Source: Candidatus Gastranaerophilales bacterium (GTDB lineage: Bacteria > Cyanobacteriota > Vampirovibrionia > Gastranaerophilales > Gastranaerophilaceae). From it: DNA of 45,362 bases. Positions 13,825-36,194 of this stretch are shown here, piece after piece. The notes beneath the pieces are model-generated. The model worked only from the letters and a program-made list of their open reading frames with translations. It was not told the origin of the DNA and did not search any database. The stretch's first letter is position 1; every line of letters begins with the position of its first letter. The position numbers and the translations under genes were made by a program. The stretch lies in contig CANPXC010000001.1 in NCBI GenBank assembly GCA_947585605.1, forward strand, positions 1-45,362, in the 5' to 3' direction.

Positions 13825-13835
13825 AAGGGTTTAAT

Positions 13836-14456
13836 ATGAAAGTTGAAAATCAAATAAAACAAAATATTGAAAATAAAGAATTAAATGTTCCCATGACTGA
13901 AGAAGAAATGAATGTTTTAAATTCGCAAGGCGGCGCATTTATAGACGTATTAAATCAAAATATTCCTTCAGACGAAACTCAGGATTTTTCGGATTTAGAT
14001 ATTGATTACAATTATGATTCTTTGATGATGTCAATAGAAGACGCAATGTTTTTTGTAAATCTGGCAAGAGAAGGGCAATTCAGTATTGAAGTCAATCCGA
14101 ACGGCAGTTTTAGTAATATTATGCAGCTTGAAGTCGCGCAGACCTCGGTTACTCAAAAAAATGTTGAAATAACAAATAATTTAATTAATTTGATAGAAAA
14201 AGCACAAAATACTCAAAAGCCCGTACGTATTACCTTTGATAATGATGTATCCGTTATATTAAAAATAGATAAACACGGTAAAGTTACGGCAGAATTTATT
14301 CCCGGCAGTGCGGAAGTTGAAAATTATTTAAGGAATAATATAGCCTCATTAAAACAGCGTTTTGACGAGCAAAACCTTCCTTATAATGATTTATTGTACA
14401 GGCAGAATAACAGACAAAATAAAGGAAAAGATAAAAATAATAAAGGAGATAAATAA
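13836..14456 (+). CDS. Possible hook-length control protein (FliK C-terminal-domain-like)
   Basis: C-terminal VRITFDNDVSVILKIDKHGKVTAEFIPGSAEVENYLRNNIASLKQRFDEQNL resembles the Flg_hook domain pattern. Position between fliJ and a hook/rod gene fits; the protein is short (206 aa). Confidence 0.4.
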   Translation: MKVENQIKQNIENKELNVPMTEEEMNVLNSQGGAFIDVLNQNIPSDETQDFSDLDIDYNYDSLMMSIEDAMFFVNLAREGQFSIEVNPNGSFSNIMQLEVAQTSVTQKNVEITNNLINLIEKAQNTQKPVRITFDNDVSVILKIDKHGKVTAEFIPGSAEVENYLRNNIASLKQRFDEQNLPYNDLLYRQNNRQNKGKDKNNKGDK

Positions 14457-15292
14457 TGCGTGACGCATTTATAACTGCAGTTAATGCTCAAAAAGTTACA
14501 AATAACTGGATTCGTGATATATCAGAAAACTTAATTAATGCATATACCCCCGGATACCGCGAAAGACAATTTACGTTTAAGACCTTTTTAGACGGTGCTA
14601 TCGGGGATAATTCTTTAAGAAATATCGGGCAGGGTAAATCTTCTCCGGGTACTTCTGATGAAAATATATATCTGGAAGGCAGCGGTTATTTTGTATTAAG
14701 AAATGATAAAGGACGTCTTGTTTATACAAGGCTGGGTGAATTTAAATTTGACGGTGAAGGCGTTTACAGAAGCTCTGACGGTCAAGCTGTTCAAGGATAT
14801 ATTTTAAATGATAAAGGTGAAATAATGAACGGTGCAAAACCGGTTGACGCCGAATCATTTATTGATACGGCTTTTGACGGCGGTGCAGCTTCTGTTCCCA
14901 CAACTAATATTAAATTATGGATTGACCCATCTAATGGTAAATATTTAGGCAAATATGAAGAATTCGAGTTTAAGGATGACGGCATATTGTACGGAAAAGC
15001 CGATGGCGGAAAGATTAAGACTCCGTTATATAAAGTCGCAATAATAAATTTCCATAATCCGCAGCAGTTATTTCAAGTTGCGGAAGGACAATTTGTGGAA
15101 ACTGAGGCTTCCGGAAGACCTGTTGTAGGCAGAGGAGAAGTCAGAGGCGGATTGATAGAATTATCAAATGTTGATTTTGACGCTAACACAACGTATTATC
15201 AACAGGCTCAAACCCAACTGGATATGGCGAATGCTTTAATTAAATCTCACAGACAATTACTGCAAAACGCTATAGAACTTATGGAAGGTTAA
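14456..15292 (+). CDS. Flagellar hook / distal rod family protein (FlgE/FlgG-like, short form)
   Basis: N-terminal rod motif (ISENLINAYTPGYRE, cf. NIAN.NT.GFK) and C-terminal LIELSNVDFDANTTYYQQAQTQLDMANALIKSHRQLL (cf. LE.SNVD...E...MI..QR.YQAN). Start overlaps the upstream stop. Confidence 0.65.
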   Translation: MRDAFITAVNAQKVTNNWIRDISENLINAYTPGYRERQFTFKTFLDGAIGDNSLRNIGQGKSSPGTSDENIYLEGSGYFVLRNDKGRLVYTRLGEFKFDGEGVYRSSDGQAVQGYILNDKGEIMNGAKPVDAESFIDTAFDGGAASVPTTNIKLWIDPSNGKYLGKYEEFEFKDDGILYGKADGGKIKTPLYKVAIINFHNPQQLFQVAEGQFVETEASGRPVVGRGEVRGGLIELSNVDFDANTTYYQQAQTQLDMANALIKSHRQLLQNAIELMEG

Positions 15293-21200: not shown

Positions 21201-24051
21201 CGGATTTATAGTGGATAAATCTATGAAAATCGGTCAGCCTGTAAGAGTTATAAAAGGTGCTGTGGGCGTTGAGAAAGAAGAACAAGTAAAATTCGGATTA
21301 TATAATGACATGATATTGCCCGGGGCAGCGGTAAGGGGACATCAAAAAATATTTAATCTGATAAACAGTATGCTTAATACAAATAAATGCGCTCAAAGAT
21401 ATGAAGCATTAGAAAAAGCGATTGCTCAAGGATATAAATTATCTCCGGATTACTTGGAACACTTGGATGAAGGCGCTCAATTAAAGGCGGAACGCCTTGA
21501 AAAACGTTTGGAAAAAGAAATTAATTCAAAGGAAGATTTTGATAAACTTCAAGATAATGACGATTTAAAAATCATTATGGAAAAAATTTCTTTGTATATG
21601 TCTACTGATAATCCGATTTTAAAAAATATGGTTGCAGCTTGCAGTGATATGGAGGAATTAAGTGAAGTAAAAAAAGATTTTATGTATGATTATATTGATA
21701 CATTTAAGGAGATAATGGGAAAATCTGAAGAAACTCTTTCTAATATCAAAGCATACATAAAAAATGATTTTATAAATTTATATAAAGAAATTGTTGATAA
21801 ATATTCGGAAGAAGCCGATAAACAAAAAATGGAAGACGTATTGGATCAGTTATTTGACGGCTCAATATTAAATGATAATAAATTCAACGGAAATATAGAT
21901 GACTTAGAAAATATTCTTTTAAATCATGTTGTAAAAACTGCATTTGATAATTTAAATGATGAAGAAGCAGCAATTCATTTTATTGACGGTACTCAAAAGT
22001 TAATAAAAGAAGCAATAAATAAAGGAATAAGGATAAATTCGCTTGAAAGTCCTAATTTGGTTAATAATCCGCTAAGCGAATACTTTATAGCCGCTATAGA
22101 TAAATATTTAAATCCAAAATCCGATGAAGAACTGTTAAATATAATACAAAGCTTCCAAAAGGCTGATAATAAAACGGCGGAAGACTTTTTAAATGCCTTA
22201 ACGGAAGAAGATTTCGGGTTATTCTTTAAACCTGCTTATGACTATTTGGAAAGATATAAAGCTGAAGATTCAGCTGTTATAAGAGTATTTAACGAAATAG
22301 CAGGCATAGAGGAAATATATGATTTTATCCGCATGTCCGGTGAAGATGATGAGGATAAGGCATTACCGGATGAAATATACAGAGATTTATACGTAAAACT
22401 TACTAATATGGACGTACAGAAGTATGTTAAAAACTTCAAAGCCGAAGCATTTGAAAAATATAAGCTTAGACAAGCATTCCCTCAGCCCGTTGTAATTAGT
22501 GATGATGATATTATTACATCGGCAAATAATTTTATTACGGAAATAAGAGATACGGTTGGCAGTATATTTAATTATGATGAAACATTGGAATTGTTTTCAT
22601 TGTATACGGAATTTTGCGATAATCACAAGGATGATGAAATATATAAATCAATGCTTGAGGGTAAAAAAGTTGACGTAAATCAAGAATATATTGAGTCTTT
22701 AAAGTCGGAATTAACGCCAATTTATCAATATTTGTGTAAAGATGAAACATTTAAGGATATAACAAATCCTTTAGCTAATATGATAAGTTATTTGAGTGAT
22801 GAAAATTCATTACATAAAAATATGAAACGCTTTAATAAATGCTTAAAAACTTTCACAAGCAATTTTGATGATTTTCTTCAAGGCGGATTAACCATAGATA
22901 GAACTATAGGAAATAAGAATGATGAACTAAAAACATTCAAACAAAATATAAGCTTATACGTAAATTCAACAATTCAAGCGAAATATAGAAACGGCGCAAT
23001 AATCAGAGTAAAAAATCTGATAAATCTGTATAAAAATAATGCTCCTCAAGATGAGATAGACTATGCATATTATGATTTTATTGGATATACAATATTAAGG
23101 CATATTACAAAAAATCCCGTTGCATTGTTGAATGAGTGTGTAAAAGATGTACAAAAAGGCAAAAAGGACACGTTAGAATATAAATATAAAAAGGAATTTT
23201 TACAAGCAACGCTTCGGGTTGCGCAGCAGACAAATATTCAATATTCATTGGTTAAAAATCAGCATGAGGGAATTGATTCCAAGATAAAGGATGTATTACC
23301 TTATTTCGTTGTATATAAATCAGAAGGAAATTCTTCGGCAACTACCGTTGATGAATTAAATGAATCAAGCGGAATTAATTATTTAATCGCCCAATTAGAT
23401 AATGCCCAGGATAATCATACAACTTTAAATTTGTTTCTTGAACAGGCAGGATTATCCCGTGACGCCGTAAATGCTCTTATTGAAAATTTTAATATTGAAA
23501 AAATGAAAAAATTGACAAACGAAAAAGCAGCTGAAATTATTCAGGATTCTGCGGATTTAAAAGTATTAAAAGGTGTTCATGATGATTATTACAGAAAAGC
23601 TCATATAAGATATAAATCAATAGAAGACGCTTTTAATCAATTCGCCTCTTATGCGGAAAGAAAAACAAGAAAACATTCAAATTCTAAATTAATTCAGTCT
23701 TTTATATATAATTTAAGGAATACAAAAGTCCAAGAAAATACATTATCCCCGAATGGTTCATTATTTAAAGAATTTATGCAGATGATAACATTGGAATTGT
23801 TGGATTCTGAACTGGATAAAGTAAACGGGAAATTTAATTATATAGCGGAACTATATAATACTTCAGTCGAGTTTACTGATTTAATAAACGCAATAAAAGT
23901 TCCTCAAGATAGTAGTGAATACAAGGCTCGTGAAGAATTTGTCGAAAAAATAAATGAAGCAAAACAATACTGCAATCAAGTTCTTGGTAAATTATCACAA
24001 GTAGTGGAAGCAACTAACGGCATAAAATTTGATAGTAATGAAGAATTATAG
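18226..24051 (+). CDS. Giant (1941 aa) signal-less protein with a PepC/bleomycin-hydrolase-like (papain-clan) cysteine-peptidase signature
   Basis: Uninterrupted 5.8-kb ORF with SD. DQRQSGIC (Q241, C247), YAFHAQ (H932), WTDNSWG (N962) and GNGWGWKDGFIV. The rest is helical and D/E/K/N-rich, with no other motif recognised. Confidence 0.8.
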   Translation: MRINQIGVNRINFKSTRTDINTVKTLKTGTLPISENKKINIYNSLANISKAPDRAGIEVLLDVADNLAYGQGGNSEYKSLLNATGNTPEERENTDWTLILKNTIEQALNTVDEQENQDLKAKFEQIFNGGKKELTPVQKEILDIRNNLLTEVLNYDKFEDETSLLHAANIRKNLDYFAASSEISAQQKKECFEKFVYFLSDDYKIQPQLEDKKLQALDEILTDMLVKTPESEILTTKDIDQRQSGICAAISICRKALAYEDKVRYLDVIMQELSASPYMEVFDITALGSGKKVNIEKADINYDSALSRGYRIIDASAHTWMQNAHASGDGTILTEKYTAFDEDNYGIYDDSSWYEGLGEEYQTSKNFLKALIKEREELKLIDKKKKEIKALTQGLYSSKEKLLNELSSISALTNKMLGSIFPDYSNEQVTALYKNIIKFYKGNSENNEVNIPQKLDKSLKVNILSDYIKSQVPDITETQTEKLSELSEKIYNSVSAYCETENNLDKAKKYSSKTAKYRYNQNLYRAAAAHRIAIEADLDMPDGEIRYEKALGLEPENYRGADYLRKISASLASEDVRKKYAQETSEIPSKEELEKELNFDILKLESLIPAKFDRLLDDMLGKSLAQLLSDMFAQVKTSILEEDETSLHTMAANLRIKPDSKEVIKKIEDWQQKLSDNEDKEYKNVSEAARILGFKNITMAVNAFVASFYKSLQSGISEEEFERLSNKYGQENLSAVLENLRNEFFEIKEEYENIFSKWDIPSSKSIIIKRFEKENLVLSRSKLNKLKQKFDFIANRTAYNSMYIQNIKARKKANEKVMNFSNEEQAIFEQIEKSLPEMKSYSKRSYNSMNNMLFDKLEEQYAYIGKLNGQFWVREEGSSGLTSNEQLRIIEQITGRPYHIESDITEAVKVIKEGEGSGIISTSVDDTDYAFHAQYVPAVTEETFTNPLTGKNNKEDVLWTDNSWGYAEKEHYWNGRDGHEYTDYGNGWGWKDGFIVDKSMKIGQPVRVIKGAVGVEKEEQVKFGLYNDMILPGAAVRGHQKIFNLINSMLNTNKCAQRYEALEKAIAQGYKLSPDYLEHLDEGAQLKAERLEKRLEKEINSKEDFDKLQDNDDLKIIMEKISLYMSTDNPILKNMVAACSDMEELSEVKKDFMYDYIDTFKEIMGKSEETLSNIKAYIKNDFINLYKEIVDKYSEEADKQKMEDVLDQLFDGSILNDNKFNGNIDDLENILLNHVVKTAFDNLNDEEAAIHFIDGTQKLIKEAINKGIRINSLESPNLVNNPLSEYFIAAIDKYLNPKSDEELLNIIQSFQKADNKTAEDFLNALTEEDFGLFFKPAYDYLERYKAEDSAVIRVFNEIAGIEEIYDFIRMSGEDDEDKALPDEIYRDLYVKLTNMDVQKYVKNFKAEAFEKYKLRQAFPQPVVISDDDIITSANNFITEIRDTVGSIFNYDETLELFSLYTEFCDNHKDDEIYKSMLEGKKVDVNQEYIESLKSELTPIYQYLCKDETFKDITNPLANMISYLSDENSLHKNMKRFNKCLKTFTSNFDDFLQGGLTIDRTIGNKNDELKTFKQNISLYVNSTIQAKYRNGAIIRVKNLINLYKNNAPQDEIDYAYYDFIGYTILRHITKNPVALLNECVKDVQKGKKDTLEYKYKKEFLQATLRVAQQTNIQYSLVKNQHEGIDSKIKDVLPYFVVYKSEGNSSATTVDELNESSGINYLIAQLDNAQDNHTTLNLFLEQAGLSRDAVNALIENFNIEKMKKLTNEKAAEIIQDSADLKVLKGVHDDYYRKAHIRYKSIEDAFNQFASYAERKTRKHSNSKLIQSFIYNLRNTKVQENTLSPNGSLFKEFMQMITLELLDSELDKVNGKFNYIAELYNTSVEFTDLINAIKVPQDSSEYKAREEFVEKINEAKQYCNQVLGKLSQVVEATNGIKFDSNEEL

Positions 24052-24121: not shown

Positions 24122-24397
24122 ATGAAAAAATTATTGGTTGCAATTTCATTAATTATATTAGTATTAGATATAGTTCCTCCGGTTTATGCTTTAAACGTAG
24201 GAACGTATAAAACCGAAACTGAATATGGTTTGTTAGACGGATTTAAAATTAATTGGAAAAGAAAAGATAAATCAAAACCGTTTATAGAACCGAGAGAAGG
24301 TTCTACGCAAAGAGATAAAGAAATAGAAATGCGTCAATATAAAGAAGATGAATACCAGCGTACAAAATATATGTATGACGGAATGGCAATAATATAA
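24122..24397 (+). CDS. Small exported protein, unknown function
   Basis: 91 aa, signal peptide MKKLLVAISLIILVLDIVPPVYA, SD AGAGG upstream. No terminator between it and the giant gene. Confidence 0.5.
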   Translation: MKKLLVAISLIILVLDIVPPVYALNVGTYKTETEYGLLDGFKINWKRKDKSKPFIEPREGSTQRDKEIEMRQYKEDEYQRTKYMYDGMAII

Positions 24398-24529: not shown

Positions 24530-26308
24530 TTACAGAATGTTTGAAGTAAGTGTAAAGTGGAATCTTGCAGTATTTCTGTCCATATTGTTAGCATAATCCG
24601 CCCAGCGTCTGCCGATAGGGAAACCCCAATACATGTTAGCGGAGATGTATTTAGTAAGCTTAACAATAATACCCGGACCTGCACTCATTAAGTATTGAGT
24701 ATGACTTGAGTCAACATCAGACCATTGGAATCTGTTACCGACCCAGCCGATATCATAGAATGCAGCGAGTTGAATACTGTCGCTGATAAATTTGTATTTT
24801 TCAGGTAAAACAGCTCTGAACCCGGGGATTGGGAATCTGTATTCAAAGCTTGCATTCATACCGTAGTCACCAATGAAGAAGCCTTCATCATAACCTCTAA
24901 CAGAGGAAATACCACCGATTTGCATCGCTTCTGAACCCCAAAGGTGTCTGTTTGCGTATTGACCGTTAACTTGTAATAACATTAACTGATTTGCAGGTAA
25001 TACTTGTAAACGTGCAGCCCCTGCATTAACTTTAACGAAGTTATTGCTTGCCATATTGCGGGCTTTGTTATAATCGGAAGCATCGATAGGAATACCGCCG
25101 GAAACTGAACCGTTGAATAACCATCTTCCGTAGTAATCATCTTTAACATCAGTTAAGCTTGCTTTAAGAACTCTTGTTCTGTAGTCGGTTAATATGTCGT
25201 CTAAAATTTTGTGACCTGAAGATAAATCGGTATTACGTAAATCTAAAGTGATATCACCATATAATCTGTAATCTTCACCTTTTGCTAATCTTCTTGATAC
25301 ACCGATGAATACGTCATGAGATTCACCTTTGATATCCAAGTATTTTAAAGCTTTACCGAGTCTTACGTTAGAGTATGAATAGCCGACATTTAATCTGGTA
25401 TCATTTTTAGCAATCGGAATAGAATAAATACCGCCTGCACCTAATGAACGAGATGACAGAGCGACCGTACCCATTAAAGTATCGCCGTGGCCTGTAACAT
25501 CATGTAAACCGGCATATAAAACGCCTCTTTGAGTACCGATAGCTTCACGACCTTGGTTATCGTATCTTAAGTCTAAGTTAATCGGGAATCTGTCTTTAAC
25601 GTCAAGAGAAACATCCGAATATTCTTCTGATTCTTCGTTATCAGCGAAAGAAACAGAACCTTTCATATATTCTTCCGTAGACATTTCCGTTAATGCATTA
25701 CGAACATCTTTAACGTTTAATACTTTACCCGGTTGAATATTGTTATCTGATAAATAGTGTTTATTTAAGTATGAAGAACGCTCCCATTTACCGGGGTTAA
25801 TTTCAACATTACCATATTTACCTTCTAAGATTTTGATTTCAATAACTCCGTTTTGAACTTTTTGCGGAGGGAGGTAAGCCATTGTTGAAAGATAGCCTTT
25901 TCCTTGATAGTAGTCTGTAATTTCATTTGCAGACATAATTAAATCGTTAATTGTAACTTCTTGACCTATTTTAAAATCGACAAGTCTCATTAAAACATAA
26001 GTAGGGAAAACAGTGTTTCCGGTAATTTTAATGTCTTTTAATTTAAATGAAACTTGTTTTGTATTAAGTAAATCCATTTTCTTTTGGATTTCAGCTTCAA
26101 CAACAGCAGGGTTTTTAGTTTCCACATATTTTGTTTGTGCTTCATATTCTTTTCTTTGAATGAAGTTGCTGTTATCGATAAGACCTGCATCATAACCGCC
26201 GGTATTAGCCGGAATATTTGTCGGAATAACGGTGTCAGCTGCGAAAGCCGGCACACTGAGCATTAATGATGCACATAATAAAGTTGTTTTTAGTAATGTT
26301 TTTTTCAT
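24530..26308 (-). CDS. Two-partner-secretion outer-membrane transporter (TpsB; ShlB/FhaC/HecB family)
   Basis: Signal peptide MKKTLLKTTLLCASLMLSVPAFA. POTRA-like LKDIKITGNTVF...INDL...ITDYYQGKGYLSTMAYLPPQKVQNGVIEIKILEGKYG. Long beta-barrel-type C-terminal part. Adjacent to three TpsA-like genes. Confidence 0.85.
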   Translation of the reverse strand: MKKTLLKTTLLCASLMLSVPAFAADTVIPTNIPANTGGYDAGLIDNSNFIQRKEYEAQTKYVETKNPAVVEAEIQKKMDLLNTKQVSFKLKDIKITGNTVFPTYVLMRLVDFKIGQEVTINDLIMSANEITDYYQGKGYLSTMAYLPPQKVQNGVIEIKILEGKYGNVEINPGKWERSSYLNKHYLSDNNIQPGKVLNVKDVRNALTEMSTEEYMKGSVSFADNEESEEYSDVSLDVKDRFPINLDLRYDNQGREAIGTQRGVLYAGLHDVTGHGDTLMGTVALSSRSLGAGGIYSIPIAKNDTRLNVGYSYSNVRLGKALKYLDIKGESHDVFIGVSRRLAKGEDYRLYGDITLDLRNTDLSSGHKILDDILTDYRTRVLKASLTDVKDDYYGRWLFNGSVSGGIPIDASDYNKARNMASNNFVKVNAGAARLQVLPANQLMLLQVNGQYANRHLWGSEAMQIGGISSVRGYDEGFFIGDYGMNASFEYRFPIPGFRAVLPEKYKFISDSIQLAAFYDIGWVGNRFQWSDVDSSHTQYLMSAGPGIIVKLTKYISANMYWGFPIGRRWADYANNMDRNTARFHFTLTSNIL

Positions 26309-26671
26309 TTGTCCGCTCTCTATATTATAATATTATTTCTACTTATATTACATTCTATATAATACTACAGAAAAAATAAAATATGTAACAATATTAATTT
26401 TATTATAAATTATTATTTCCGAATATTGTATAAACCAATTATATGAAATATAAACAAATTATATTTTGCGTGAAATTAAAATATTTATAACATATCTTAA
26501 CAAAATAATTATTTATAAATTTATTTGTTATATATTAATTTTTATTAACATTAATTATTTATTTGACAAAAAAAATTATGTGTGGACTTTAAATCTTTTG
26601 TGTGAATTTTGATACAGATTAAGAGATGTATTTTTAGGCTAAAAAATATAAAGAGAATGGAGAGACTAAGA

Positions 26672-29173
26672 ATGAAAAAATTATTAGGGAGTGCAATTGC
26701 ATTAAGTGTTGTTTTTTCAACTTCACTTCTAAGTCCTGTATTCGCCGCAGGTGTTCTGGATCCAAATACTTTGCCTGATTTAAACAGAGCTGAAAACGGT
26801 AAAGTCGGTATCGGCGATAATCATGATATGAATGTTCAGGTACAAGGCGGGCAAGGTAGTGTAGGTCAATTCTGGTGGAATAATTTTAATGTCGGAAGTA
26901 ATGCTTCCGTAAATTTTGAATTTTCGGCACATAATCAAACCGCATTGAATAAAGTAGAACAAACAGGCGGTATGTCGCAAATATTCGGTCAAATAACAAA
27001 TTCGGGATGTGCGACTTGCGGTTATGAAGGAACGGGGAAAGTAATACTTATCAACCCAAACGGTGTATTGTTCGGCGACGGCGCAAATGTTAACTTAAAT
27101 TCTTTTACAGTTTCAACATTTAACGGTGATTATGATTCAAACTCAGGCGCATTGAAACTTCAAAGACAAGAAAACGCAGGCGATATTAATGTAATGGGTA
27201 ATGCCCGCATACATGGTGAAGAAGGCGTAAATTTTGCGGCTACAAATATAAATTTATATAACGGTTCTAAAATCTCAACAGGATTAGCTAATAATTTTAA
27301 TAATAATACCTCTGCAATGGGAAAAGTAAAATTGGTTACGGGTGATGGAGTTACATTTAATTATTACAACAGCGGTTCCGTAAAAGATGCGGATGTAAAA
27401 ACCTCAAAAGATAAAATGGTAATACAGGTTAACGGCGAAATAGAAGCCGGAAATATTGATATAAGAAATTATTCAAGCAATGAAGGAAGCCAAATAAATT
27501 TAAAGAATGCAAATTTAAAAGCTGTTAAGGCAGTAAAAGGCAATGACGGCAGTATTTGGCTGACAGCTGCAAATGATATTGTAATCGGAGAATCAAATAT
27601 TACAACATCTAATGCTGAAGGCGCCGAAAATCCAACGGGCGGTGATGTGTTAATCCAAGCGGGAAGAAAAGTTACATTACGTTCTTCCGAAGACGGAGAA
27701 GTTAAAACAATTGTTAATGCCGTTGGTAATGTTGATTTGATATCAACAAAATCCGATGTTCTTTTAAACGACTCAATAGTTAATGCCGCAGGCAAGGTTA
27801 ATGTAACAGCTGCTAATGTTGCTGCTCTTGAAAACGGAGCTAAAATTAAATCAGGAGCTGATATTACTTTGAACGGTAAAAACAGAACTCAAATTATTGA
27901 CGGCTCGGATGTAACAGCTGAAAACGGAAATATATTAATTCTTTCTGATAAACTGGTTTGGGCTGCAAATGGTGCAAAAGTTACGGCAAATAACGGTAAT
28001 GTTAATGTTGAATCTCAAAGCGGAGATATACAATTATCAGATACAACCTTAAGTGCTGACAACAATGATGTAACTTTAAAATCGGCAGGGTCTATAACAT
28101 CTGAAAAATTAAAAGGTTCAATTTTAGCAGGCAGAAATGTCGGCTTGGAATCAACTCAAAAGGATGTAATTCTTTCCTCCGTTTCTCAGTTTGAAACACC
28201 GCAAGACGGAGCATTTAATCTTAAAGCTGCTAATAACGTTGAAATTAACTCGGAAGCTGATTTAAACTTAAATGACAAAAATTACAACTTTGAAGCAGGC
28301 AATAATATATTTTTAACCTCTCAAGGAGATGTAAATATTGACAGGCACTCAGGTTTCATATCAGCTGAAAATATTTACGTAACTTCCGGTAATAATTTAA
28401 ATATAGATACGGATTTAAATAACATACAAACAAATTTATCTGCGGGAAATGATTTAACAGCAACGCTTAGTAATGCAGGAACCCGTGAAAAAGGTTTAAT
28501 AGCAACAGCAGTAAATGATATGACGATAAATTCGGACGGAACGCTATATTTATCAAAATTGGTATCGGGCAATAACATGACATTAAATGCCGATAAAATT
28601 GCAGCAGCTGCACCGTTTACGGAGGAATATTTAAAGGAAGAAGGTGACAGCACGGGCAGAGCATATATAGAAGCAGGCGGAATTTTTGAAACATCAGCCG
28701 ATTATACAATAACTGACTCTGCCGAAAAAGTTCAGACAAACGGTAAAATATACGGCGACAGACATCATCTGTATTTTGAAGGCGAAAACGGTGAAAATGA
28801 AAATTTCCTTCTTGTAAATAAAAAACAAATAGGGACCTCTCCTTCTACTGAAATACCGGAACCTGAAATACCGGAAATTCCGAGTACGGAAGATAAAGAA
28901 GTTGTAGATCCCGATAATTTAGGCGGAGATGTTGATCCTTCAATCCCAGGCGGCGGAGAAGTAAAACCCCCTGTTGATCCGGATAAAGAATGTGAAAAAG
29001 AACCAGAAAATCAAGAAATAAATCCGGAAGAACATCCGCAATTGCCCGAAGTTGATTATGGAGATTACGGCGACGGCGGTGACTCAAGAGTTGAAGACGG
29101 AGATTTAGACTTATCAAGTATATCAAACACCGTTTCATCATATATCTTTGAACAAGAAGTTAAAAAACATTAA
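26672..29173 (+). CDS. TpsA-like secreted beta-helix protein 1 (haemagglutination-activity/TPS domain), 833 aa
   Basis: ATG 26672 follows GGAGAG. Signal peptide. TPS-domain blocks FNVG..ASV.FEFS...ALN.VE..G.SQI.G and LINPNGVLFGDGANVNLNSFTVST. Repetitive beta-helix-type sequence, acidic Pro-rich tail. Confidence 0.85.
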   Translation: MKKLLGSAIALSVVFSTSLLSPVFAAGVLDPNTLPDLNRAENGKVGIGDNHDMNVQVQGGQGSVGQFWWNNFNVGSNASVNFEFSAHNQTALNKVEQTGGMSQIFGQITNSGCATCGYEGTGKVILINPNGVLFGDGANVNLNSFTVSTFNGDYDSNSGALKLQRQENAGDINVMGNARIHGEEGVNFAATNINLYNGSKISTGLANNFNNNTSAMGKVKLVTGDGVTFNYYNSGSVKDADVKTSKDKMVIQVNGEIEAGNIDIRNYSSNEGSQINLKNANLKAVKAVKGNDGSIWLTAANDIVIGESNITTSNAEGAENPTGGDVLIQAGRKVTLRSSEDGEVKTIVNAVGNVDLISTKSDVLLNDSIVNAAGKVNVTAANVAALENGAKIKSGADITLNGKNRTQIIDGSDVTAENGNILILSDKLVWAANGAKVTANNGNVNVESQSGDIQLSDTTLSADNNDVTLKSAGSITSEKLKGSILAGRNVGLESTQKDVILSSVSQFETPQDGAFNLKAANNVEINSEADLNLNDKNYNFEAGNNIFLTSQGDVNIDRHSGFISAENIYVTSGNNLNIDTDLNNIQTNLSAGNDLTATLSNAGTREKGLIATAVNDMTINSDGTLYLSKLVSGNNMTLNADKIAAAAPFTEEYLKEEGDSTGRAYIEAGGIFETSADYTITDSAEKVQTNGKIYGDRHHLYFEGENGENENFLLVNKKQIGTSPSTEIPEPEIPEIPSTEDKEVVDPDNLGGDVDPSIPGGGEVKPPVDPDKECEKEPENQEINPEEHPQLPEVDYGDYGDGGDSRVEDGDLDLSSISNTVSSYIFEQEVKKH
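26771..27625 (+). repeat. Conserved 855-nt TPS module, copy 1 (dispersed direct repeat)
   Basis: From LPDLNRAENG to NAEGA. Collinear without gaps with 29443..30297; long stretches are nearly identical at nucleotide level by eye. Confidence 0.75.
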
Positions 29174-29361
29174 TTATAAAACTTCGGAGGGATAATAAAT
29201 AAGCCGGTGTAAAGCCGCTCGCAAATATATTCCTCCGGAAAAGTTCAAAAAGTAATATATTAAATTTTATTAATTAGTCAAAAGAAAAGTGACAAAAAAA
29301 TTTATAAATTGTTTTTTGAGCAAAAGTGAAAAAGTGAGTAGTTTATAATGGAGAATAAATC

Positions 29362-32115
29362 GTGAAAAGACTATTAATTTCCGCAATGGCTGTTAGTGTG
29401 ATATCATTATCCGCTTTAGCTGCAGACCTTCCCGGAAATATACTTCCGGATTTTAACCGTGCAGAAAACGGAAGTGTTAATTACGGCGATAAAAATGATT
29501 TGAATGTAAAAGTAGAAGGGCAGCAAGGAACTGTAGGCTCTTTCTGGTGGAACAGTTTCAATGTAGGCAAAGACGCCTCGGTTAATTTTGAATTCTCGGG
29601 ACACAATCAAACCGCATTAAACCGAGTTGAACAAGGCGGCGGTATGTCGCAAATATACGGTCAAATAACAAATTCAGGATGTGCAACATGCGGTTATGCA
29701 GGCACGGGAAAAGTTATTTTGATTAATCCTAACGGTGTATTATTCGGCGACGGCGCTAATGTTAACTTAAATTCCTTTACAGTTTCTACATTTGACGGAA
29801 ATTATAATAATGACACGAAAACGTTAGACCTTACAAGAACACAAAAATCCGGTGATATTAATGTATTAAAAGGTGCAACCATATTTGGTGATGAAGGTGT
29901 AAATTTTGCGGCAAGCAATATTAATCTTTATAACGGTTCAAAAATTTCCACAAATATCGGAAACAATTTTAATAACGGTACCGCAGCAATGGGTAAAGTT
30001 AAAATTGTTACCGGTGACGGCGTAACATTTAAATACTATAACAGCGGTGCTATTGATAATGTAAAAGCACAAACCTCAAAAGACAAAATGGTTATTCAGG
30101 TAAACGGTGAAATAACCGCGGGGAATATTGATATAAGAAATTATTCTACTCATGGCGAAAGCCAAACGAACTTGTTAAGCTCTAAATTAAAAGCTGTTAA
30201 AGCCGTTCAAGGTAATGACGGTAATATTTGGTTAACTGCAACTAATAACGTAATTGTAGGTAATGCAAATATAAGTACGGAAAAAGCTGAAGGCGCGTCA
30301 GGTAATGGTGCTAACGTCTACTTCCAATCCGGAAAAAAACTTACATTAAGAGATTCTAAAGTTAATTCCGCAGGTGATGTAAATTTTGATTCTTCAAATT
30401 ACGATGTAGTACTTGATAATGCAAAAGTAACAGCTTCAGGTAACGTAAAAATTGACGCGGGAGCTATAGCTTCCGTTCAAAACGGCTCCGTAATTGATAC
30501 ATATAACGGACGCGGTAATGTTGAAATAACGGGAAGAAACGGCAGAGCGCAAGTTATCAAATCAACCGTTAATGCCGGAAAAGATTTTAAATTGGAATCT
30601 CAAAAGTCTGATATTTATGTACAAAAATCAAATGTTAAAACAGCCGGTGAAGCAAGTTACATTGCTAAAGAAGGTAAGGCCGATATAACAGATGACAGTC
30701 TTACTGCCGGAAAGGCTATTAATATTGAAACAAAAGATGACATTTTAGCTTCTAATTTAAGAAACACTATATTTATGAGTACTAATGATATTAATTTAAA
30801 ATCAGATGGTAATATAAAACTCCAGGGTACAAAAGAACTCAACGCAATAAGAGGCAAAATAACCCTTACCGCAGGTGAAAATATAGAGCTGGTTAATACT
30901 GCCCAAGCTGATGATAAAGGCAGCGCCGATTTGGAATTACGCTGGAGAGAATTGGACTTAAATGCCGGTAAAGATATTAAATTGGCGTCTGAACACGGTA
31001 ATGTTTACATGAACAGCAGCAGCTCTTCAAAAATTGATTTCCAAAAAGCAAACAACATTGAAGTTTCTGCCGATAAAGACATTACATTAAAAGATGTTGA
31101 TTTTAAAGACTATAATACAAATATAAAAGCGGGTAATACATTAAATTACTCAAGCAGCGCAAAGGCAAATGAAGACGGCTCTGCTAATATGGGAATTTTC
31201 GGTAAAGATAACGTAAATATTGAAGCAGCAAACGCAAAATTCTCATATAACCACGGTGATATTACTCTTACAGGTGACCAAATTAACTCCAAATTAAAAA
31301 ACGTAAGCAGCGGTATCGGTTTTGCCGCAAAAGAAGGTAATTTGACCATAACAGACGGTGATTTTACCGGAAAACAAGCTGATCTTGAAGCCGGTAAAAA
31401 TATGACGTTAACCAACTTAAAAGGCGTAACCGATAAAGAAAAAGGCTTAATCGCAAAAGCAGGGAATGAAATGACAATCTCAACCGCTGACAATACTGAT
31501 TTAGCAGTATCAAGCTTAGTATCCGGCGGAAAAATGAAACTTACATTAAGCGGTGAACAAGGTCAAACGGGTAAACTGATTGCAGGTCAACAACCAAAAG
31601 GTGAAGACGGTCACGGCTTGCATTCTTTCAATGAAACCGGAGATTCCGATAATAACGCATATATTGAAGCAGGTGGGGATTTATATGTATATACAGACTC
31701 CAGCGCTAAACATGGAAAAAGATATAACAATTCCGGAAGCTCCACAAGCAGTGATAAAATCCAAAAAGGAAAATTAGTCGGCGGTGAAGGTGAATTCTTA
31801 TATACAATAAAACCTGCACCTGCAGTTGATACGGAAGCACAACACTGGCATGACGCACCGGCTCAGGGCGTAAACTTTAAAGACTATGAAGACCACTACA
31901 CAGTAGAAGACAGTCATGGCAATGAATATACTGTATACGATGAAACTCAAACATATAACGAAGATGGGGAACCCCAATGGTCGTATAAAATTAAAAAAGT
32001 ACAGCCAAACGGTGACATTTATTTATATGAAGATGAAACACTGCAAAAATATTCATGGTACAGAAAAGAAATGGACGGTTGGTTTATCGGCAGTATGGAC
32101 GAAGAAATAGATTAA
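29362..32115 (+). CDS. TpsA-like secreted beta-helix protein 2, 917 aa
   Basis: GTG start follows GGAGA (29350-29354). Signal peptide. The TPS module is highly similar to protein 1. Longer repeat region, aromatic/acidic tail. Confidence 0.85.
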   Translation: MKRLLISAMAVSVISLSALAADLPGNILPDFNRAENGSVNYGDKNDLNVKVEGQQGTVGSFWWNSFNVGKDASVNFEFSGHNQTALNRVEQGGGMSQIYGQITNSGCATCGYAGTGKVILINPNGVLFGDGANVNLNSFTVSTFDGNYNNDTKTLDLTRTQKSGDINVLKGATIFGDEGVNFAASNINLYNGSKISTNIGNNFNNGTAAMGKVKIVTGDGVTFKYYNSGAIDNVKAQTSKDKMVIQVNGEITAGNIDIRNYSTHGESQTNLLSSKLKAVKAVQGNDGNIWLTATNNVIVGNANISTEKAEGASGNGANVYFQSGKKLTLRDSKVNSAGDVNFDSSNYDVVLDNAKVTASGNVKIDAGAIASVQNGSVIDTYNGRGNVEITGRNGRAQVIKSTVNAGKDFKLESQKSDIYVQKSNVKTAGEASYIAKEGKADITDDSLTAGKAINIETKDDILASNLRNTIFMSTNDINLKSDGNIKLQGTKELNAIRGKITLTAGENIELVNTAQADDKGSADLELRWRELDLNAGKDIKLASEHGNVYMNSSSSSKIDFQKANNIEVSADKDITLKDVDFKDYNTNIKAGNTLNYSSSAKANEDGSANMGIFGKDNVNIEAANAKFSYNHGDITLTGDQINSKLKNVSSGIGFAAKEGNLTITDGDFTGKQADLEAGKNMTLTNLKGVTDKEKGLIAKAGNEMTISTADNTDLAVSSLVSGGKMKLTLSGEQGQTGKLIAGQQPKGEDGHGLHSFNETGDSDNNAYIEAGGDLYVYTDSSAKHGKRYNNSGSSTSSDKIQKGKLVGGEGEFLYTIKPAPAVDTEAQHWHDAPAQGVNFKDYEDHYTVEDSHGNEYTVYDETQTYNEDGEPQWSYKIKKVQPNGDIYLYEDETLQKYSWYRKEMDGWFIGSMDEEID
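29443..30297 (+). repeat. Conserved 855-nt TPS module, copy 2
   Basis: From LPDFNRAENG to KAEGA; same length as copy 1. Confidence 0.75.
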
Positions 32116-32143
32116 TCTCTTCATAATATGAAAAATATAGTCA

Positions 32144-32170
32144 AAAGAGCAGTATTTACTGCTCTTTATG
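32144..32170 (+). terminator. Probable terminator after tpsA-like gene 2
   Basis: Perfect 10-bp stem AAAGAGCAGT (32144-32153) / ACTGCTCTTT (32158-32167), loop ATTT. The downstream U-tract is weak. Confidence 0.5.
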
Positions 32171-32400
32171 CTGTGTTAAGAAATTTTAACAAAATCGAAT
32201 AAAAATGTAAATTTTTCAGACAGAAAAGTTTTTATATAGTATATATAGAGTATATTATTTTTTTAAGAGAGATTTAAATTTAAAAAAATGTAACAATAAA
32301 AAAACAATATGTAAAAAATATAGCAATTTTTTTTTTCACAATATTTAAGTTATTTGTAACAAGTAAAATTATTAAGCAAAAAATATAAAGGAAGAAGAAC

Positions 32401-34353
32401 ATGAAAGACATGAAAAAATTATTAAGTACAACAATCGCTGTTGGTATCTTAGCGGTAACTTCATCTGCTCCGGCATTTGCACTTGCAGATAATGCATTAC
32501 CAAACATTGATTCATTCCAACATGGTAGTGTTACTAACGGACAAAATAATGATTTAAAAGTTAAAGTTGATGGTGCCGAAGGTACAGTTGGTGAATTTTT
32601 ATGGAACAGTTTCAATGTCGGTAAAAATGCATCAGTTGATTTTGAATTCAGCGCTCATAACCAAACAGCATTAAACAGAGTTAAAGAAACAGGCGGCTTA
32701 TCTGAAATCTACGGAAGCATTACAAACTCAGGTTGTGCAGGTTGTAACTATGCAGGAACGGGTAAAATTATATTAATCAACCCAAACGGTGTATTATTCG
32801 GTGACGGCGCAAATGTTAATGTAAACTCATTTACAGTATCTACATTTGATGGTCAATATAATAAAGATTCACAAGAATTAGTATTAAACAGAAACGGTAA
32901 AGTATCCGGTGATAAAGGCGGCATTACAATTGATAAAGGTGCTGTTCTTAAAGGCGATAAAGGCGTACATTTAGTTTCTGATAAAGTTAATATTCTTAAA
33001 GGTTCTCAAATTTCTACAAGTATTGTTCCGAATGCTAACAACAATACTGACGCATTAGGAAAAGTTAAAATCGTTACTTCAGACGGTGTTACATTCCAAT
33101 ATCACGTTAGCGGTGCAGTAGATAAAGTTAAAGATGTTAAAGCTTCTTCTCAAAAAATGGTATTAAATGTTAACGGTAATATAGATGCAGGTCATATTGA
33201 AATCGCTAACTATTCAACACATGCAGATAGTGAAGTTAACTTAAACGGTGCTAACTTAAAAGCTACTAAAGCTGTTAGAGGTAACGATGGTAATATTTGG
33301 TTAACTGCTAACAACAGAGTTGTAATCGATGACTCTCAATTAACAACAGTTAACGGCGGAAACATCGATATCCTTGCAGGTAATAAAGTTTCTGTAGGTT
33401 CAAGCACGCTTAACGCTTCCGGTAACTTAATAGCTAATTCTCAAAACGGTGATTTAGTTGTTGACGGTTCTAATCTTACATCTGCAAAAGATGTTAAACT
33501 TACGGCAAAGAAAATTGCTTCAGTTCAAAAGAAAGAACGTGGTAACTCTACAATCAAAGGTGATAATATAACAATCACAGGTTCAGACGCTTGGACTAAC
33601 GGTGCTACAATGACAGCTTCCAAGAACTTAACTCTTAAAGCTGAAACAGGTGATGTTGTTTCTAACTCTTCTACTTTAAAAGCAGATAAAATCACATTAG
33701 ACGCTAAAGGAAATGTTTCAGGAAACGCTGATGTAACTGAAAGCAATACAAACATCACAGCAGGTAAAGATATCAATGTTAAATTAAAAAATGTAGGCAA
33801 CAGAGAACACGGTTTAATTGCTGAAGCTGATCAATCAGTTACAGTTGAAACAGACGGTACATTATCAATATCAAGATTAGTTGCTAAAAATGGTGATATG
33901 AACATCAAAGCTAAAAACGTAATCGCCGGCAAACCTTATACAAATGAAGAAAAAGTTCAAAACGGTGATACAAGCGAAAGATCTTACATCTACGTTGAAC
34001 ACGGTAAATTCAATTCTCAAACATCTGAAGACAGCTATACAATCTCAGCTTCTGATAAACCTATCAACGGCGGTAAAGAAAACTTAAGACACCATATCGA
34101 ATATGGTAACGGCGAAGAAAAAATCTTATTAATCAACCCTCAACCAGCTCCGGCTGTTGAACCCGGTCCTTCAGCAGATGTTACAAGACCTGTAGTATCA
34201 GTAAACGATGATCAAGCTTCAATGTTAAACAAATTACCTCGTCAACCTGAAACAATTAAAGTTAACAACGCAATTAAAAATAACAAAACTCAATTAGTAG
34301 ATGTATATGCGGCAGCTAGCCAAATTGAAATCGAAGATGACGAAGAAGAATAA
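32401..34353 (+). CDS. TpsA-like secreted beta-helix protein 3, 650 aa
   Basis: SD AAGGAAG. Signal peptide ...SSAPAFA. Same TPS blocks (LINPNGVLFGDGANVNVNSFTVST). More diverged from 1 and 2 than they are from each other. Confidence 0.85.
   Translation: MKDMKKLLSTTIAVGILAVTSSAPAFALADNALPNIDSFQHGSVTNGQNNDLKVKVDGAEGTVGEFLWNSFNVGKNASVDFEFSAHNQTALNRVKETGGLSEIYGSITNSGCAGCNYAGTGKIILINPNGVLFGDGANVNVNSFTVSTFDGQYNKDSQELVLNRNGKVSGDKGGITIDKGAVLKGDKGVHLVSDKVNILKGSQISTSIVPNANNNTDALGKVKIVTSDGVTFQYHVSGAVDKVKDVKASSQKMVLNVNGNIDAGHIEIANYSTHADSEVNLNGANLKATKAVRGNDGNIWLTANNRVVIDDSQLTTVNGGNIDILAGNKVSVGSSTLNASGNLIANSQNGDLVVDGSNLTSAKDVKLTAKKIASVQKKERGNSTIKGDNITITGSDAWTNGATMTASKNLTLKAETGDVVSNSSTLKADKITLDAKGNVSGNADVTESNTNITAGKDINVKLKNVGNREHGLIAEADQSVTVETDGTLSISRLVAKNGDMNIKAKNVIAGKPYTNEEKVQNGDTSERSYIYVEHGKFNSQTSEDSYTISASDKPINGGKENLRHHIEYGNGEEKILLINPQPAPAVEPGPSADVTRPVVSVNDDQASMLNKLPRQPETIKVNNAIKNNKTQLVDVYAAASQIEIEDDEEE
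32497..33345 (+). repeat. Conserved TPS module, copy 3 (more diverged)
   Basis: From LPNIDSFQHG to DDSQLTT. Alignable with copies 1 and 2 at protein level, with different synonymous codon choices. Confidence 0.65.
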
Positions 34354-34370
34354 GAAGCAAAGATAAATTT

Positions 34371-34402
34371 AAAAAAGGAACCTCAAAAAGGTTCCTTTTT
34401 TA
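34371..34402 (+). terminator. Rho-independent terminator after tpsA-like gene 3
   Basis: GGAACC (34377-34382) / GGTTCC (34390-34395), 7-nt loop, A-run before and T6 after. Confidence 0.75.
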
Positions 34403-34460
34403 TTGACTTAATTTTTTCGTTTAAGTAACATATTATTGGGATATGAGGGAATTTGAATTT

Positions 34461-36194
34461 ATGAAAAAATTTATAATAGCTGTTTTAGTTTTAAATTCAA
34501 TGGCAATGGTTTCGTTTGCGCAGCCAATATATGATAATAAATATGGTTCGGCGAAATCTGCTATTCAGCCTTCATCCTTTAACTTGAATAATACTGTCAC
34601 GCAGGTTGGAAATATTGATTACAATGCCGCTATCAGTGAGCTGCAAAGTAAAATCTCTCAAAATCCGAATGATAATTCTTTATATATTTCTCTTGCTGAA
34701 CTTTATATCCGCAGTAAACAAACCGATAAAGCTTTTCAAGAGTTAATATATCTTGTAAATCAATCTAAAAAAAATAAATTAAGCAAGGAAGAGTTAAAAT
34801 CCGCAGATGATTTAGAGTATTCTTTAAACAGGCAATATAAAACAAAATCATCGGATTTATATTGTGAACTGGCTCTTTTAAACTTAATAGTACAGGATAA
34901 TGTAAAGGCTCAAGCAGCACTTTCTTATGGGACTAATTCTTCATTGTTTATTGAAACATATAAAGAAGTCTTTAATATAACCGGTGATTACAGAAGTGCT
35001 ATAGAGCTTGCTGATAACTTATTAATAAAAAATCCTAATTTAACGGAGTTGAGAAGATTAAAAGGTTTTTATCTGCTTCAATTAAATCAGGAAACTGCAG
35101 CTGCAGAGGAATTTTCAACACTTTTAATTGCAACACCGGATGATGAAGAAGTTAAATATAATCTTTATAAAATATTGAAAAAAAATAATATACCGGAAAA
35201 AGAAATTATAAAACAAGTATGTGTATCGGCTCAAGGAAACGAAGAAAAGGCGCTTAGCGAGCTTTCTGACTTGCTTTTAAAAAATAATGATTTCGCCTCA
35301 GCAAAAATTTATGCCGAAAAGCTCGTAAATAAATATCCCGAAAATGCAAACGGTTATATCGTTTTATCCGAAATATACAGACGTGAAGGCAATTTAAAAG
35401 ATTGTTATGACGTCTTAAAATTAGTCAGAGATAAAGCGGATAATAATGAAGCTATTGCAAAATATAATGTTATGCTTGCAAAACTTTCCGATGAACCTGT
35501 AAAAGAAGCTGATTTACTGATGAATAACGGTTTGTATCAGCAGGCTTTAAGTGTTCTTGAAAGTTCTAATCAAGAAAACCTTTATGTTATGCTTGGAATG
35601 GCGAGGGCTAATTATTTCCTTAACAATAAGCAAAAGACTTTTGAGCTTTTAAATAAAGCAATGTCATTGTATCCTGATAATCCTGATATGTTTTATTATT
35701 TTGCTTATATTTTTTATAAAGAAAATGATTTTGAAAGTGCAAGAAATTATATCAGTAAAGCTCTTGAGGTTTCTCCTTCTCATAAATTTTCACTTGATCT
35801 GCTTGATGTTATTAATAAAACAGAGGCTGATAAGTATTTAAATCAAATTAATTATTCTATAGACAACCAAAACTATAAAGAGGCAATGCGTTTAGTTGAT
35901 GAGGCATTAAAAATTGATTTAAAAAATTCTAATTTGTACTATTTAAAGGGTGTAATTTACATTTCATTAAATAATTATGCTGCCTCGACAGCCCCTTTAT
36001 ATAAGGCAATTGAACTCGATAAAAACAATTATTCGGCATATTACTACTTAGGTGTTGCTTTTGATAATTTATCAGAGCAAAAAAATGCACTTGAGTACTA
36101 TAAAAAATATTTGCAATATCTTCCCTCAGATGATTATGGTGAAAGCGAAAAGAAAGAATATGCTAACGTAAGAATAAAAAAACTTTCTCAATAA
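34461..36194 (+). CDS. Exported tetratricopeptide-repeat (TPR) protein
   Basis: Signal peptide MKKFIIAVLVLNSMAMVSFA (ATG 34461; the ORF track starts 6 codons earlier). Many TPR-like 34-aa units (A..Y..A...P.N...Y..LG.......A...Y.KAL). Confidence 0.7.
   Translation: MKKFIIAVLVLNSMAMVSFAQPIYDNKYGSAKSAIQPSSFNLNNTVTQVGNIDYNAAISELQSKISQNPNDNSLYISLAELYIRSKQTDKAFQELIYLVNQSKKNKLSKEELKSADDLEYSLNRQYKTKSSDLYCELALLNLIVQDNVKAQAALSYGTNSSLFIETYKEVFNITGDYRSAIELADNLLIKNPNLTELRRLKGFYLLQLNQETAAAEEFSTLLIATPDDEEVKYNLYKILKKNNIPEKEIIKQVCVSAQGNEEKALSELSDLLLKNNDFASAKIYAEKLVNKYPENANGYIVLSEIYRREGNLKDCYDVLKLVRDKADNNEAIAKYNVMLAKLSDEPVKEADLLMNNGLYQQALSVLESSNQENLYVMLGMARANYFLNNKQKTFELLNKAMSLYPDNPDMFYYFAYIFYKENDFESARNYISKALEVSPSHKFSLDLLDVINKTEADKYLNQINYSIDNQNYKEAMRLVDEALKIDLKNSNLYYLKGVIYISLNNYAASTAPLYKAIELDKNNYSAYYYLGVAFDNLSEQKNALEYYKKYLQYLPSDDYGESEKKEYANVRIKKLSQ

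Follow-up and report, generated by a model that had tools for sequence, protein, structure and literature searches.

One transporter and three classes of short, predicted beta-helical cargo in a conserved two-partner secretion locus of gut Gastranaerophilales

We analysed a 45,362-nt stretch of contig CANPXC010000001.1 from Candidatus Gastranaerophilales (hereafter the window; ~33% GC), in which a two-partner secretion (TPS) locus occupies 24.5–34.4 kb. The locus is a genuine, canonical TPS system, with one transporter (TpsB) and three exported cargo proteins (TpsA1, TpsA2 and TpsA3). We read it, with a probability of roughly 70%, as a chromosomal, vertically inherited type Vb system in which a single TpsB serves beta-helical cargos of three classes, the cargos together forming a multi-cargo set of surface fibres or adhesins and TpsA3 being tethered by its C-terminal tail. 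The host organism is an uncultured gut relative of photosynthetic cyanobacteria, from a widespread lineage that is their sister group. Our literature searches found no description of TPS systems in Melainabacteria/Gastranaerophilales. To the initial annotation of the locus, the present analysis adds the taxon, the order-wide conservation, the split into core and accessory cargos, the origin of the core cargo by deletion, gene conversion, terminators behind individual genes and a disordered tail.

The transporter gene (24530–26308, minus strand) encodes 592 residues with a Sec-type leader, a POTRA region, an Omp85/ShlB barrel and the L6 motif GGISSVRGY. Its Pfam matches to ShlB (1.2e-22; 81 bits, cut-off 22.7) and POTRA_2 (2.8e-18; 66 bits, cut-off 24) are above the cut-offs and bear out the initial call of a ShlB/FhaC-type TpsB on the minus strand; Omp85 also matched (2.9e-09). 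Compared with the PDB, a profile of the TpsB family matched CdiB best (6wim, 8.7e-21), with the POTRA domain of TpsB4 and FhaC also matched. The L6 motif is invariant across the TpsB alignment and aligns with GGESSVRGF of CdiB 6wim, giving a common SSVRG(Y/F) loop. Judged by these profiles and motifs, TpsB is a transporter of the FhaC/CdiB (ShlB/FhaC) type. A divergent spacer of 363 bp and 17% GC (26309–26671) separates tpsB from tpsA1 and presumably holds both promoters; among 69 related loci measured, nearly all have a spacer of 300–470 bp and ~20% GC between tpsB and tpsA. The inverted repeats in the window's spacer are of the AT-rich, low-complexity kind only, and between 24000 and 36600 there was no Rfam match to an RNA element at E ≤ 0.1.

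Three cargo genes follow on the plus strand: tpsA1 (26672–29173; 833 aa, ~85 kDa mature), tpsA2 (29362–32115; GTG start, 917 aa, ~96 kDa mature) and tpsA3 (32401–34353; 650 aa, ~66 kDa mature), the mature masses depending on leader cleavage sites placed by eye. They belong, respectively, to an accessory M class, a sporadic X class and a core S class, described below. All four reading frames lie at the positions given in the initial annotation. The mechanical open reading frame (ORF) of TpsA1, which starts at a TTG at 26609 and runs for 854 aa, is over-extended: a GGAGAG ribosome-binding site precedes the ATG at 26672, which opens an MKKLL leader like those of the paralogues, so the protein has 833 aa, not 854. 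With this start, the AT-rich divergent spacer also has exactly the 363 bp first ascribed to it.

Each TpsA begins with a Sec-type hydrophobic leader, as read from the sequence, followed by a TPS domain. Pfam PF05860 matched TpsA1 at 1.4e-13, TpsA2 at 1.4e-14 and TpsA3 at 2.8e-11 (44–55 bits, cut-off 33.5), and NCBIfam TIGR01901 ('adhes_NPXG') matched them at 4.9e-14, 3.3e-15 and 5.8e-15 (52–56 bits, cut-off 29.1). The NPNG-containing motif LINPNGVLFGDGANVN(L/V)NSFTVST, already quoted in the initial annotation, is unchanged in all three, with NPNG at residues 128, 122 and 127 of TpsA1, TpsA2 and TpsA3. The proposal of three same-strand exoproteins with a leader and a TPS domain is thereby upheld. 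It had been offered for rejection if profile searches failed to detect the domains; they returned TPS domains in all three cargos and ShlB and POTRA_2 in TpsB. A pair of cysteines lies before the NPNG strand in a loop of the TPS domain (residues 113/116, 107/110 and 112/115, in the same order); it is CxxC in the near clade of relatives defined below and Cx3–4C in most far-clade proteins that keep NPNG. In mature TpsA2 and TpsA3 these are the only cysteines, and TpsA1 has one more. The pair could form a disulfide or bind metal in these proteins of an anaerobe.

Beyond the TPS domain the cargos differ in layout. TpsA1 has a beta-helix and then a Pro/acidic-rich tail with one cysteine, ending in ...FEQEVKKH; TpsA2 has a long beta-helix and a C-terminal module of ~95 aa, ending in ...MDEEID; and TpsA3 has a beta-helix of ~550 aa, a short Pro-rich linker and a conserved acidic tail. 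Fil_haemagg and Fil_haemagg_2 repeats, suggested at the outset as a check, gave no Pfam match at E ≤ 0.01 in the three proteins. A DUF2345 match in TpsA1 was below threshold (20.6 bits, cut-off 30.7), and we took it as beta-helix repeat noise. A review of TPS systems puts TpsA proteins at ~100–650 kDa and calls HxuA, at 96 kDa, 'relatively small' (PMC5422565). The mature cargos here (~66–96 kDa) are at or below that range, so it is fair to call them short against characterised TpsAs; yet short TpsAs are the norm in one large clade of the order.

We built AlphaFold2 (AF2) models of TpsA3 and TpsA2 with family alignments. The TpsA3 model (predicted local distance difference test, pLDDT, 86.7; predicted template modelling score, pTM, 0.83) forms an uninterrupted beta-helix over residues ~30–585, and the TpsA2 model (pLDDT 86.0) over residues ~25–820. 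Searched with Foldseek, the TpsA3 model matched EtpA, HxuA and HMW1 at 1e-9 to 8e-8 (EtpA TPS domain 8cpk, 1.4e-9; HMW1 TPS domain 2odl, 8e-8) and then, more weakly, the TPS domains of FHA (1rwr, 1.4e-4) and HpmA (4e-4 and worse). The closest full-length structure to TpsA2 was HxuA (4rt6, 1.2e-9), followed by EtpA (8vbb, 5.8e-9). For both models, all structural matches at E ≤ 0.001 were TpsA structures. Profile comparison of the sequences gave a similar picture (EtpA 1.6e-14, HxuA TPS domain 7e-14, HMW1 1.9e-8). As modelled, the TpsAs are continuous right-handed beta-helices headed by a TPS domain like those of HMW1, HxuA and EtpA.

Relatives of the locus were collected by scanning one genome per GTDB species with the TpsB alignment; 165 were confirmed and the best 80 kept. 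The same chromosomal locus is present in at least 80 species representatives, that is, in the best 80 of those 165 relatives. ORFs were called in all 85 loci fetched and were classified by phmmer. Homologues of the cargos and transporter with a named source come from gut metagenome-assembled genomes (MAGs) of Candidatus Gastranaerophilales or of 'Cyanobacteria bacterium', and the nearest relatives (85–87% identity) are rabbit-gut MAGs. Among the 80 kept loci the informative names are of Gastranaerophilales type, and a few loci are labelled Muribaculaceae or just 'bacterium'. Six (L010, L016, L022, L028, L032 and L044) are titled 'uncultured Muribaculaceae bacterium' although the locus is of Gastranaerophilales type, probably through a labelling or binning error.

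The relatives fall into a near clade, with TpsB at least 68% identical to that of the window, and a far clade, with TpsB 45–53% identical. In the near clade the locus is a syntenic block: a protein of ~1900–1950 aa and an ORF of ~90 aa run towards tpsB, between one and three tpsA genes diverge from it, and beyond these lie the genes for a TPR protein, EngB and RNase E/G and a radical-SAM gene. Complete near-clade loci carry one tpsA in 6 cases, two in 18 and three in 5, the window being among the last. Far-clade loci always have one TpsA, of 1030–1330 aa, often followed by a TPR protein of ~690–720 aa, and their other neighbours differ. The tpsB–tpsA linkage is kept in ~70 related loci that retain both genes. 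Within the near clade, median identity to the window is 76% for TpsB, 76% for EngB and 82% for RNase E/G; it is 54% for the S-class TpsA, 48% for the TPR protein and 41% for the giant protein. Because TpsB matches EngB in identity and comes near RNase E/G, the transporter evolves like a housekeeping gene, and the cargos evolve quickly. By these comparisons of synteny and identity, the locus is chromosomal and vertically inherited.

Classes of cargo were assigned from identity over the region after residue 330 only. On this basis TpsA3 groups with proteins of 620–690 aa (the S class overall spans 615–695 aa), TpsA1 with proteins of ~800–916 aa (M class; for example, L001_916, L002_804 and L005_820), and TpsA2 with L001_823 and L004_1103 (X class, sporadic; the orthologues of TpsA2 are P0001–P0005). 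The alignments thus support S, M and X as distinct orthologous classes across related species and not recent variants. C-termini are class-specific as well. The M class ends in Pro/Gly-rich repeats with one cysteine, an acidic stretch and a basic end; at the end of complete X-class proteins stand one to three copies of the ~95-aa Tyr/Asp/Glu-rich module, of which there is one copy in TpsA2 and P0002, three in P0001 and none in P0003–P0005. In TpsA2 the module takes residues 825–917 (31834–32112, plus strand; ~93–95 aa) and is modelled as low-confidence beta strands (pLDDT 55–66) with a disordered end. A word-index search found no homologues of it. Exhaustive phmmer searches found six weak matches through stretches of ~30 aa, and the three of these that we scanned with Pfam are surface proteins with Ig-like repeats (HYR_4C/PKD/Big_1).

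TpsA3 is the order-wide core cargo of the lineage; its accessory paralogues, TpsA1 and TpsA2, have different tails. The S gene always adjoins the TPR gene and is the sole tpsA in six close relatives. S-class proteins align end-to-end with the long TpsA of the far clade, save for a central gap; since they match both of its ends, TpsA3 is a shortened orthologue of an ancestral cargo of 1030–1330 aa, produced by internal deletion. Two relatives, L013 (678 and 703 aa) and L027 (688 and 758 aa), have two TpsAs each with an S-type tail, so the core cargo has been duplicated in some species.

The N-terminal ends of the cargos have a different history from the rest. Over the first 330 residues TpsAs cluster by genome and not by class: same-locus paralogues have a median identity of 83% (up to 97–98%; 22 loci), and S orthologues of different loci have a median of 66%. 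In DNA sequence, tandem paralogues are 93–95% identical over their 5' 300 nt in L002 (10065–10364 against 12713–13012) and L005 (7309–7608 against 10064–10363), and the remainder is far more diverged. Alike 5' ends with a diverged remainder are the signature of recent gene conversion confined to the TPS-coding end. Homogenised TPS ends are found in most near-clade genomes, of which the window is the least homogenised. Homogenisation of this kind would keep all cargos compatible with a single, slowly evolving TpsB.

The C-terminal end of TpsA3 (34201–34350, plus strand) is both predicted to be disordered and conserved. It reads ...MLNKLPRQPE...LVDVYAAASQIEIEDDEEE; across the S class the pattern is ...MLNKLPRQPE, ~20 aa, VDV(F/Y)AAASQIEI and an acidic run, which in TpsA3 ends ...EIEDDEEE. 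Residues 590–602 and 611–650 of the TpsA3 model have pLDDT < 50. Among 32 S-class proteins, conservation is highest in the block of the last 25 residues, with a mean column identity of 0.78 (mid-helix, 0.33–0.45; TPS core, 0.75–0.77). The single TpsAs of the far clade carry a recognisable version (...LPRQLEP...GIVNAAARIEVD...), and the tail is found in every clade, including a far subclade that has no TPR gene at the usual position. A conserved yet disordered end, preceded by a short linker rich in proline, points to a linear motif that a partner recognises. Since the tail is present in all clades and TpsB is always present and highly conserved, TpsB is a likelier partner for it than the TPR protein.

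Parallels for such an end come from known cargos. HMW1 and HxuA are believed to keep their C-termini in the periplasm, where these lock the protein to its transporter by a disulfide loop (PMC5422565), and the end of FhaB, made up of a region rich in proline (PRR) plus a strictly conserved extreme C-terminus (ECT), is periplasmic and regulates processing (PMC4542190). Without a cysteine, the TpsA3 tail is no anchor of the HMW1/HxuA type, and we infer an analogous role in tethering or in control of release. By this analogy TpsA3 is probably tethered through its tail. The scheme that we propose would run as follows. After Sec export, the single TpsB would receive each TPS domain at its POTRA domains; the TpsA would then thread through the barrel and fold outside into a rod, of ~12 nm for TpsA3 by our own geometric estimate. 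The TpsA3 tail, with its role modelled on the C-termini of HMW1 and HxuA and on the PRR and ECT of FhaB, would stay in the periplasm and either tether the rod or control its release, its partner there being TpsB or, less likely, the TPR protein. In the gut, the fast-evolving rods would serve as fibres or adhesins at the surface.

Several points weigh against this proposal. 'Adhesin' is a default assignment, and HxuA, whose full-length structure comes closest, is a protein of nutrient piracy. The likeness of the TPS 5' ends could be the plain outcome of tandem repeats undergoing gene conversion, with no meaning for selection, and in the window itself homogenisation is weak (56–69% at the protein level; 67–77% for DNA over the first 300 nt). 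The lack of cysteine separates the TpsA3 tail from the disulfide-loop anchors of HMW1 and HxuA, and its partner and periplasmic location are placed purely by analogy. In the window no terminator belongs to TpsA1, which may therefore share a transcript with TpsA2.

Transcription signals otherwise set the cargo genes apart. In 17 loci, a hairpin with a T-run lies within 20–30 nt of nearly every TpsA stop, internal or last, and the next gene follows behind an AT-rich spacer of 230–330 bp. The last TpsA is followed by a terminator 20–30 nt after its stop in every related locus, the stems differing in sequence (that is, covarying); in the window this is a strong rho-independent hairpin after TpsA3 (34370–34402, plus strand). 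After TpsA2, 29 nt past the stop, there is a terminator-like hairpin (32144–32167, plus strand; AAAGAGCAGTA/TACTGCTCTTT, then TTAT...) that is weaker than the terminators behind the TpsA genes of related loci, and no canonical terminator was found 3' of TpsA1. A generic scan for promoters and terminators gave background overall; the terminators became convincing only by comparison across loci. The initial annotation had given each cargo its own upstream region, a view that the per-gene terminators and the 230–330-bp spacers of related loci strengthen. Alignment of the upstream regions of the paralogues for a shared motif was uninformative.

The gene next to TpsA3 encodes a TPR-repeat protein with a signal peptide (34443–36194, plus strand; 583 aa; many TPR families matched, TPR_19 at 5.4e-29), and one could suppose a three-component system. 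The TPR protein would then be a dedicated partner in the periplasm, binding the acidic end of TpsA3 as TPR clamps bind C-termini of EEVD type and serving as its chaperone or anchor. In 48 loci its gene comes directly after the TpsA with the tail, and among these are far-clade loci with other neighbours, for example a KdsB-like cytidylyltransferase in place of EngB; the TpsA–TPR spacer is mostly ~104–119 bp in both clades; all of the TPR proteins have hydrophobic leaders; and TpsA3 and TpsA2 both have acidic ends. Against this, a strong terminator parts the TpsA and TPR genes in every locus, and the near clade adds a −35-like box: in the window TTGACT (34403–34408, plus strand) comes directly after the TpsA3 terminator. 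We rejected the TPR gene as an operon member, because terminator and promoter-like box intervene; the box would give the TPR gene, and perhaps EngB as well, independent transcription. The tail motif persists in one far subclade that has no TPR gene at that position, and the TPR protein evolves fast (median 48% identity) beside a highly conserved tail. Similarity between clades is low, with 27% identity over 401 collinear residues for the window protein and a far-clade counterpart, and the adjacency is perhaps just inherited synteny. The TPR protein is thus a possible, though weaker, candidate for a periplasmic partner of TpsA3 and is separately transcribed; a dedicated three-component machine seems to us doubtful, though worth keeping in mind. 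The sequence (T)TTGACT(TAAT) (34403–34431 in the window) follows the terminator of the last tpsA in most near-clade loci.

A second alternative is that the cargos form a variable repertoire of surface antigens, coats expressed alternatively, whether differentially or stochastically, in response to host immunity, phage or niche, with no joint working. In its favour, a separate upstream spacer precedes every gene and a separate terminator usually ends it, copy number ranges from one to three between closely related species, helix bodies evolve much faster than TpsB, and the X-class module is present in zero, one or three copies. Such a repertoire is nevertheless unlikely. Around the three upstream regions, inverted and tandem repeats are of AT-rich low complexity only; there are no simple-sequence tracts or invertible-promoter repeats above the AT-rich background that would point to phase variation; the window holds no silent partial copies; and the cargos are conserved orthologous groups with class-specific tails and not recent cassettes. 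The alternating expression raised in the initial annotation therefore finds no backing, and we prefer a set of cargos that share one transporter.

That preferred reading, of a multi-cargo surface set with a tethered TpsA3, could be carried further. On a bolder view, TPS in Gastranaerophilales would be a core envelope structure, in which a Cys-free, acidic, disordered, order-wide tail tethers a minimal ~66-kDa TpsA, maybe through the TPR protein as a third component, and extra cargos have been recruited by gene conversion of the TPS domain. We regard this as speculative and do not expect it to hold as a whole; if true, it would make TPS a core part of the envelope and not an accessory virulence factor, and would describe a new mode of tethering.

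That the cargos are effectors and not fibres is very improbable. For such a role speak the best full-length structural match, to haemopexin-binding HxuA, and the top PDB match of the TpsB profile, to CdiB; against it, the HxuA likeness is that of a generic beta-helix (14–15% identity), the locus has no TonB-dependent receptor for nutrient capture, and TPS domains of HpmA/ShlA type match more weakly than those of HMW1, HxuA and EtpA. Pfam, profile and motif scans of the three TpsAs found no toxin, enzyme, haemolysin feature or other effector domain, in agreement with the initial annotation, which had seen no haemolysin-like, CdiA-like or other effector domain. We rejected a contact-dependent inhibition (CDI; CdiBAI) system: the TpsAs have no VENN/pretoxin motif to mark a boundary and no C-terminal toxin, and the spacers hold only spurious ORFs of ≤ 47 aa, none of them immunity-like. 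A ShlA/HpmA-type cytolysin appears improbable: the HpmA TPS domain was matched more weakly than those of EtpA, HxuA and HMW1, and the cargos are about half of the ~1600 aa of that type.

On the other side of the locus, two ORFs converge on tpsB. The larger (18226–24051, plus strand) encodes a giant protein of 1941 aa without a signal peptide, for which searches of Pfam, NCBIfam and PDB sequences gave no match, even up to E = 10. Across 25 orthologues (~41% identical) only residues 200–350 and 851–1000 are well conserved, with Q241, G245 and C247 invariant in the first block and F931-H932 and W959-x-D-N-x-W-G in the second. By eye, and without profile support, these invariants look like the Cys/His/Asn-Ser-Trp-Gly set of papain-type enzymes split by an insertion of ~680 aa. 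A 91-aa ORF (24122–24397, plus strand), which has a clear signal peptide and no family match, separates the giant ORF from the end of tpsB; it is kept in place in L002 and L005 (90–91 aa). About 10 kb upstream of the locus there are flagellar genes (13363–15292, plus strand) for FliJ-like, FliK-like hook-length control and FlgE/F/G-type rod/hook proteins. Flagellar genes are known from some Gastranaerophilales (PMC4040986), and their presence in the window places the organism probably among the flagellated members.

The locus provides a conserved, probably surface-exposed set of markers for the lineage. At ~66 kDa, TpsA3 is among the smallest TpsAs yet noted and would be a convenient minimal substrate for studying type Vb translocation, and its conserved disordered tail is a testable handle on the retention and release of short TpsAs. 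The family is also a clear natural example of how concerted evolution of a secretion domain keeps several cargos compatible with one transporter. None of this overturns the current understanding of type V secretion.

Among known systems, HxuA/HxuB of H. influenzae offers the closest full-length structure to TpsA2 and one of the best for TpsA3 (4rt6/4rm6, 1e-8 to 1e-9), and HxuA is likewise small, at 96 kDa. Its unstructured C-terminal ~66 aa are thought to be periplasmic and anchoring (PMC5422565). Unlike TpsA3, whose tail has no cysteine, HxuA is anchored through a disulfide loop; it is a single cargo where there are three here, TpsA3 is a third smaller, identity is 14–15%, and no HxuC-like TonB receptor lies near the window locus.

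HMW1 and EtpA, at ~1500–1800 aa, have the nearest TPS domains by profile and fold and share the architecture of beta-helical adhesins with the cargos described here. The C-terminus of HMW1 is also retained at its transporter (PMC5422565). In the window, however, the TpsAs lack a C-terminal cysteine pair, and the third gene encodes a signal-peptide-bearing TPR protein and not an HMW1C/EtpC glycosyltransferase; we discarded a three-gene operon of that kind, as no glycosyltransferase was found among the Pfam-scanned neighbours (~13.4–18.1 and 34.4–41.8 kb).

FhaB, a protein of ~3600 aa, resembles TpsA3 in having a Pro-rich linker and a highly conserved extreme C-terminus, of which TpsA3 would carry a miniature version. 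The two tails are likened by layout alone, and a TPS domain of FHA type matches less well (1rwr, 1.4e-4). FhaB also has a large prodomain (PMC4542190), against a post-helix part of ~65 aa in TpsA3.

A single TpsB serving several TpsAs has precedent (PMC5422565): as relayed in that review, FhaC secretes more than one TpsA, namely FHA and FhaS (Julio and Cotter 2005). The multi-TpsA systems of Neisseria meningitidis are alike in that a single TpsB serves several TpsAs. The Neisseria TpsAs are large and CdiA-like and carry toxin cassettes; the window cargos, in contrast, are short and toxin-free, and their TPS domains are gene-converted in most relatives.

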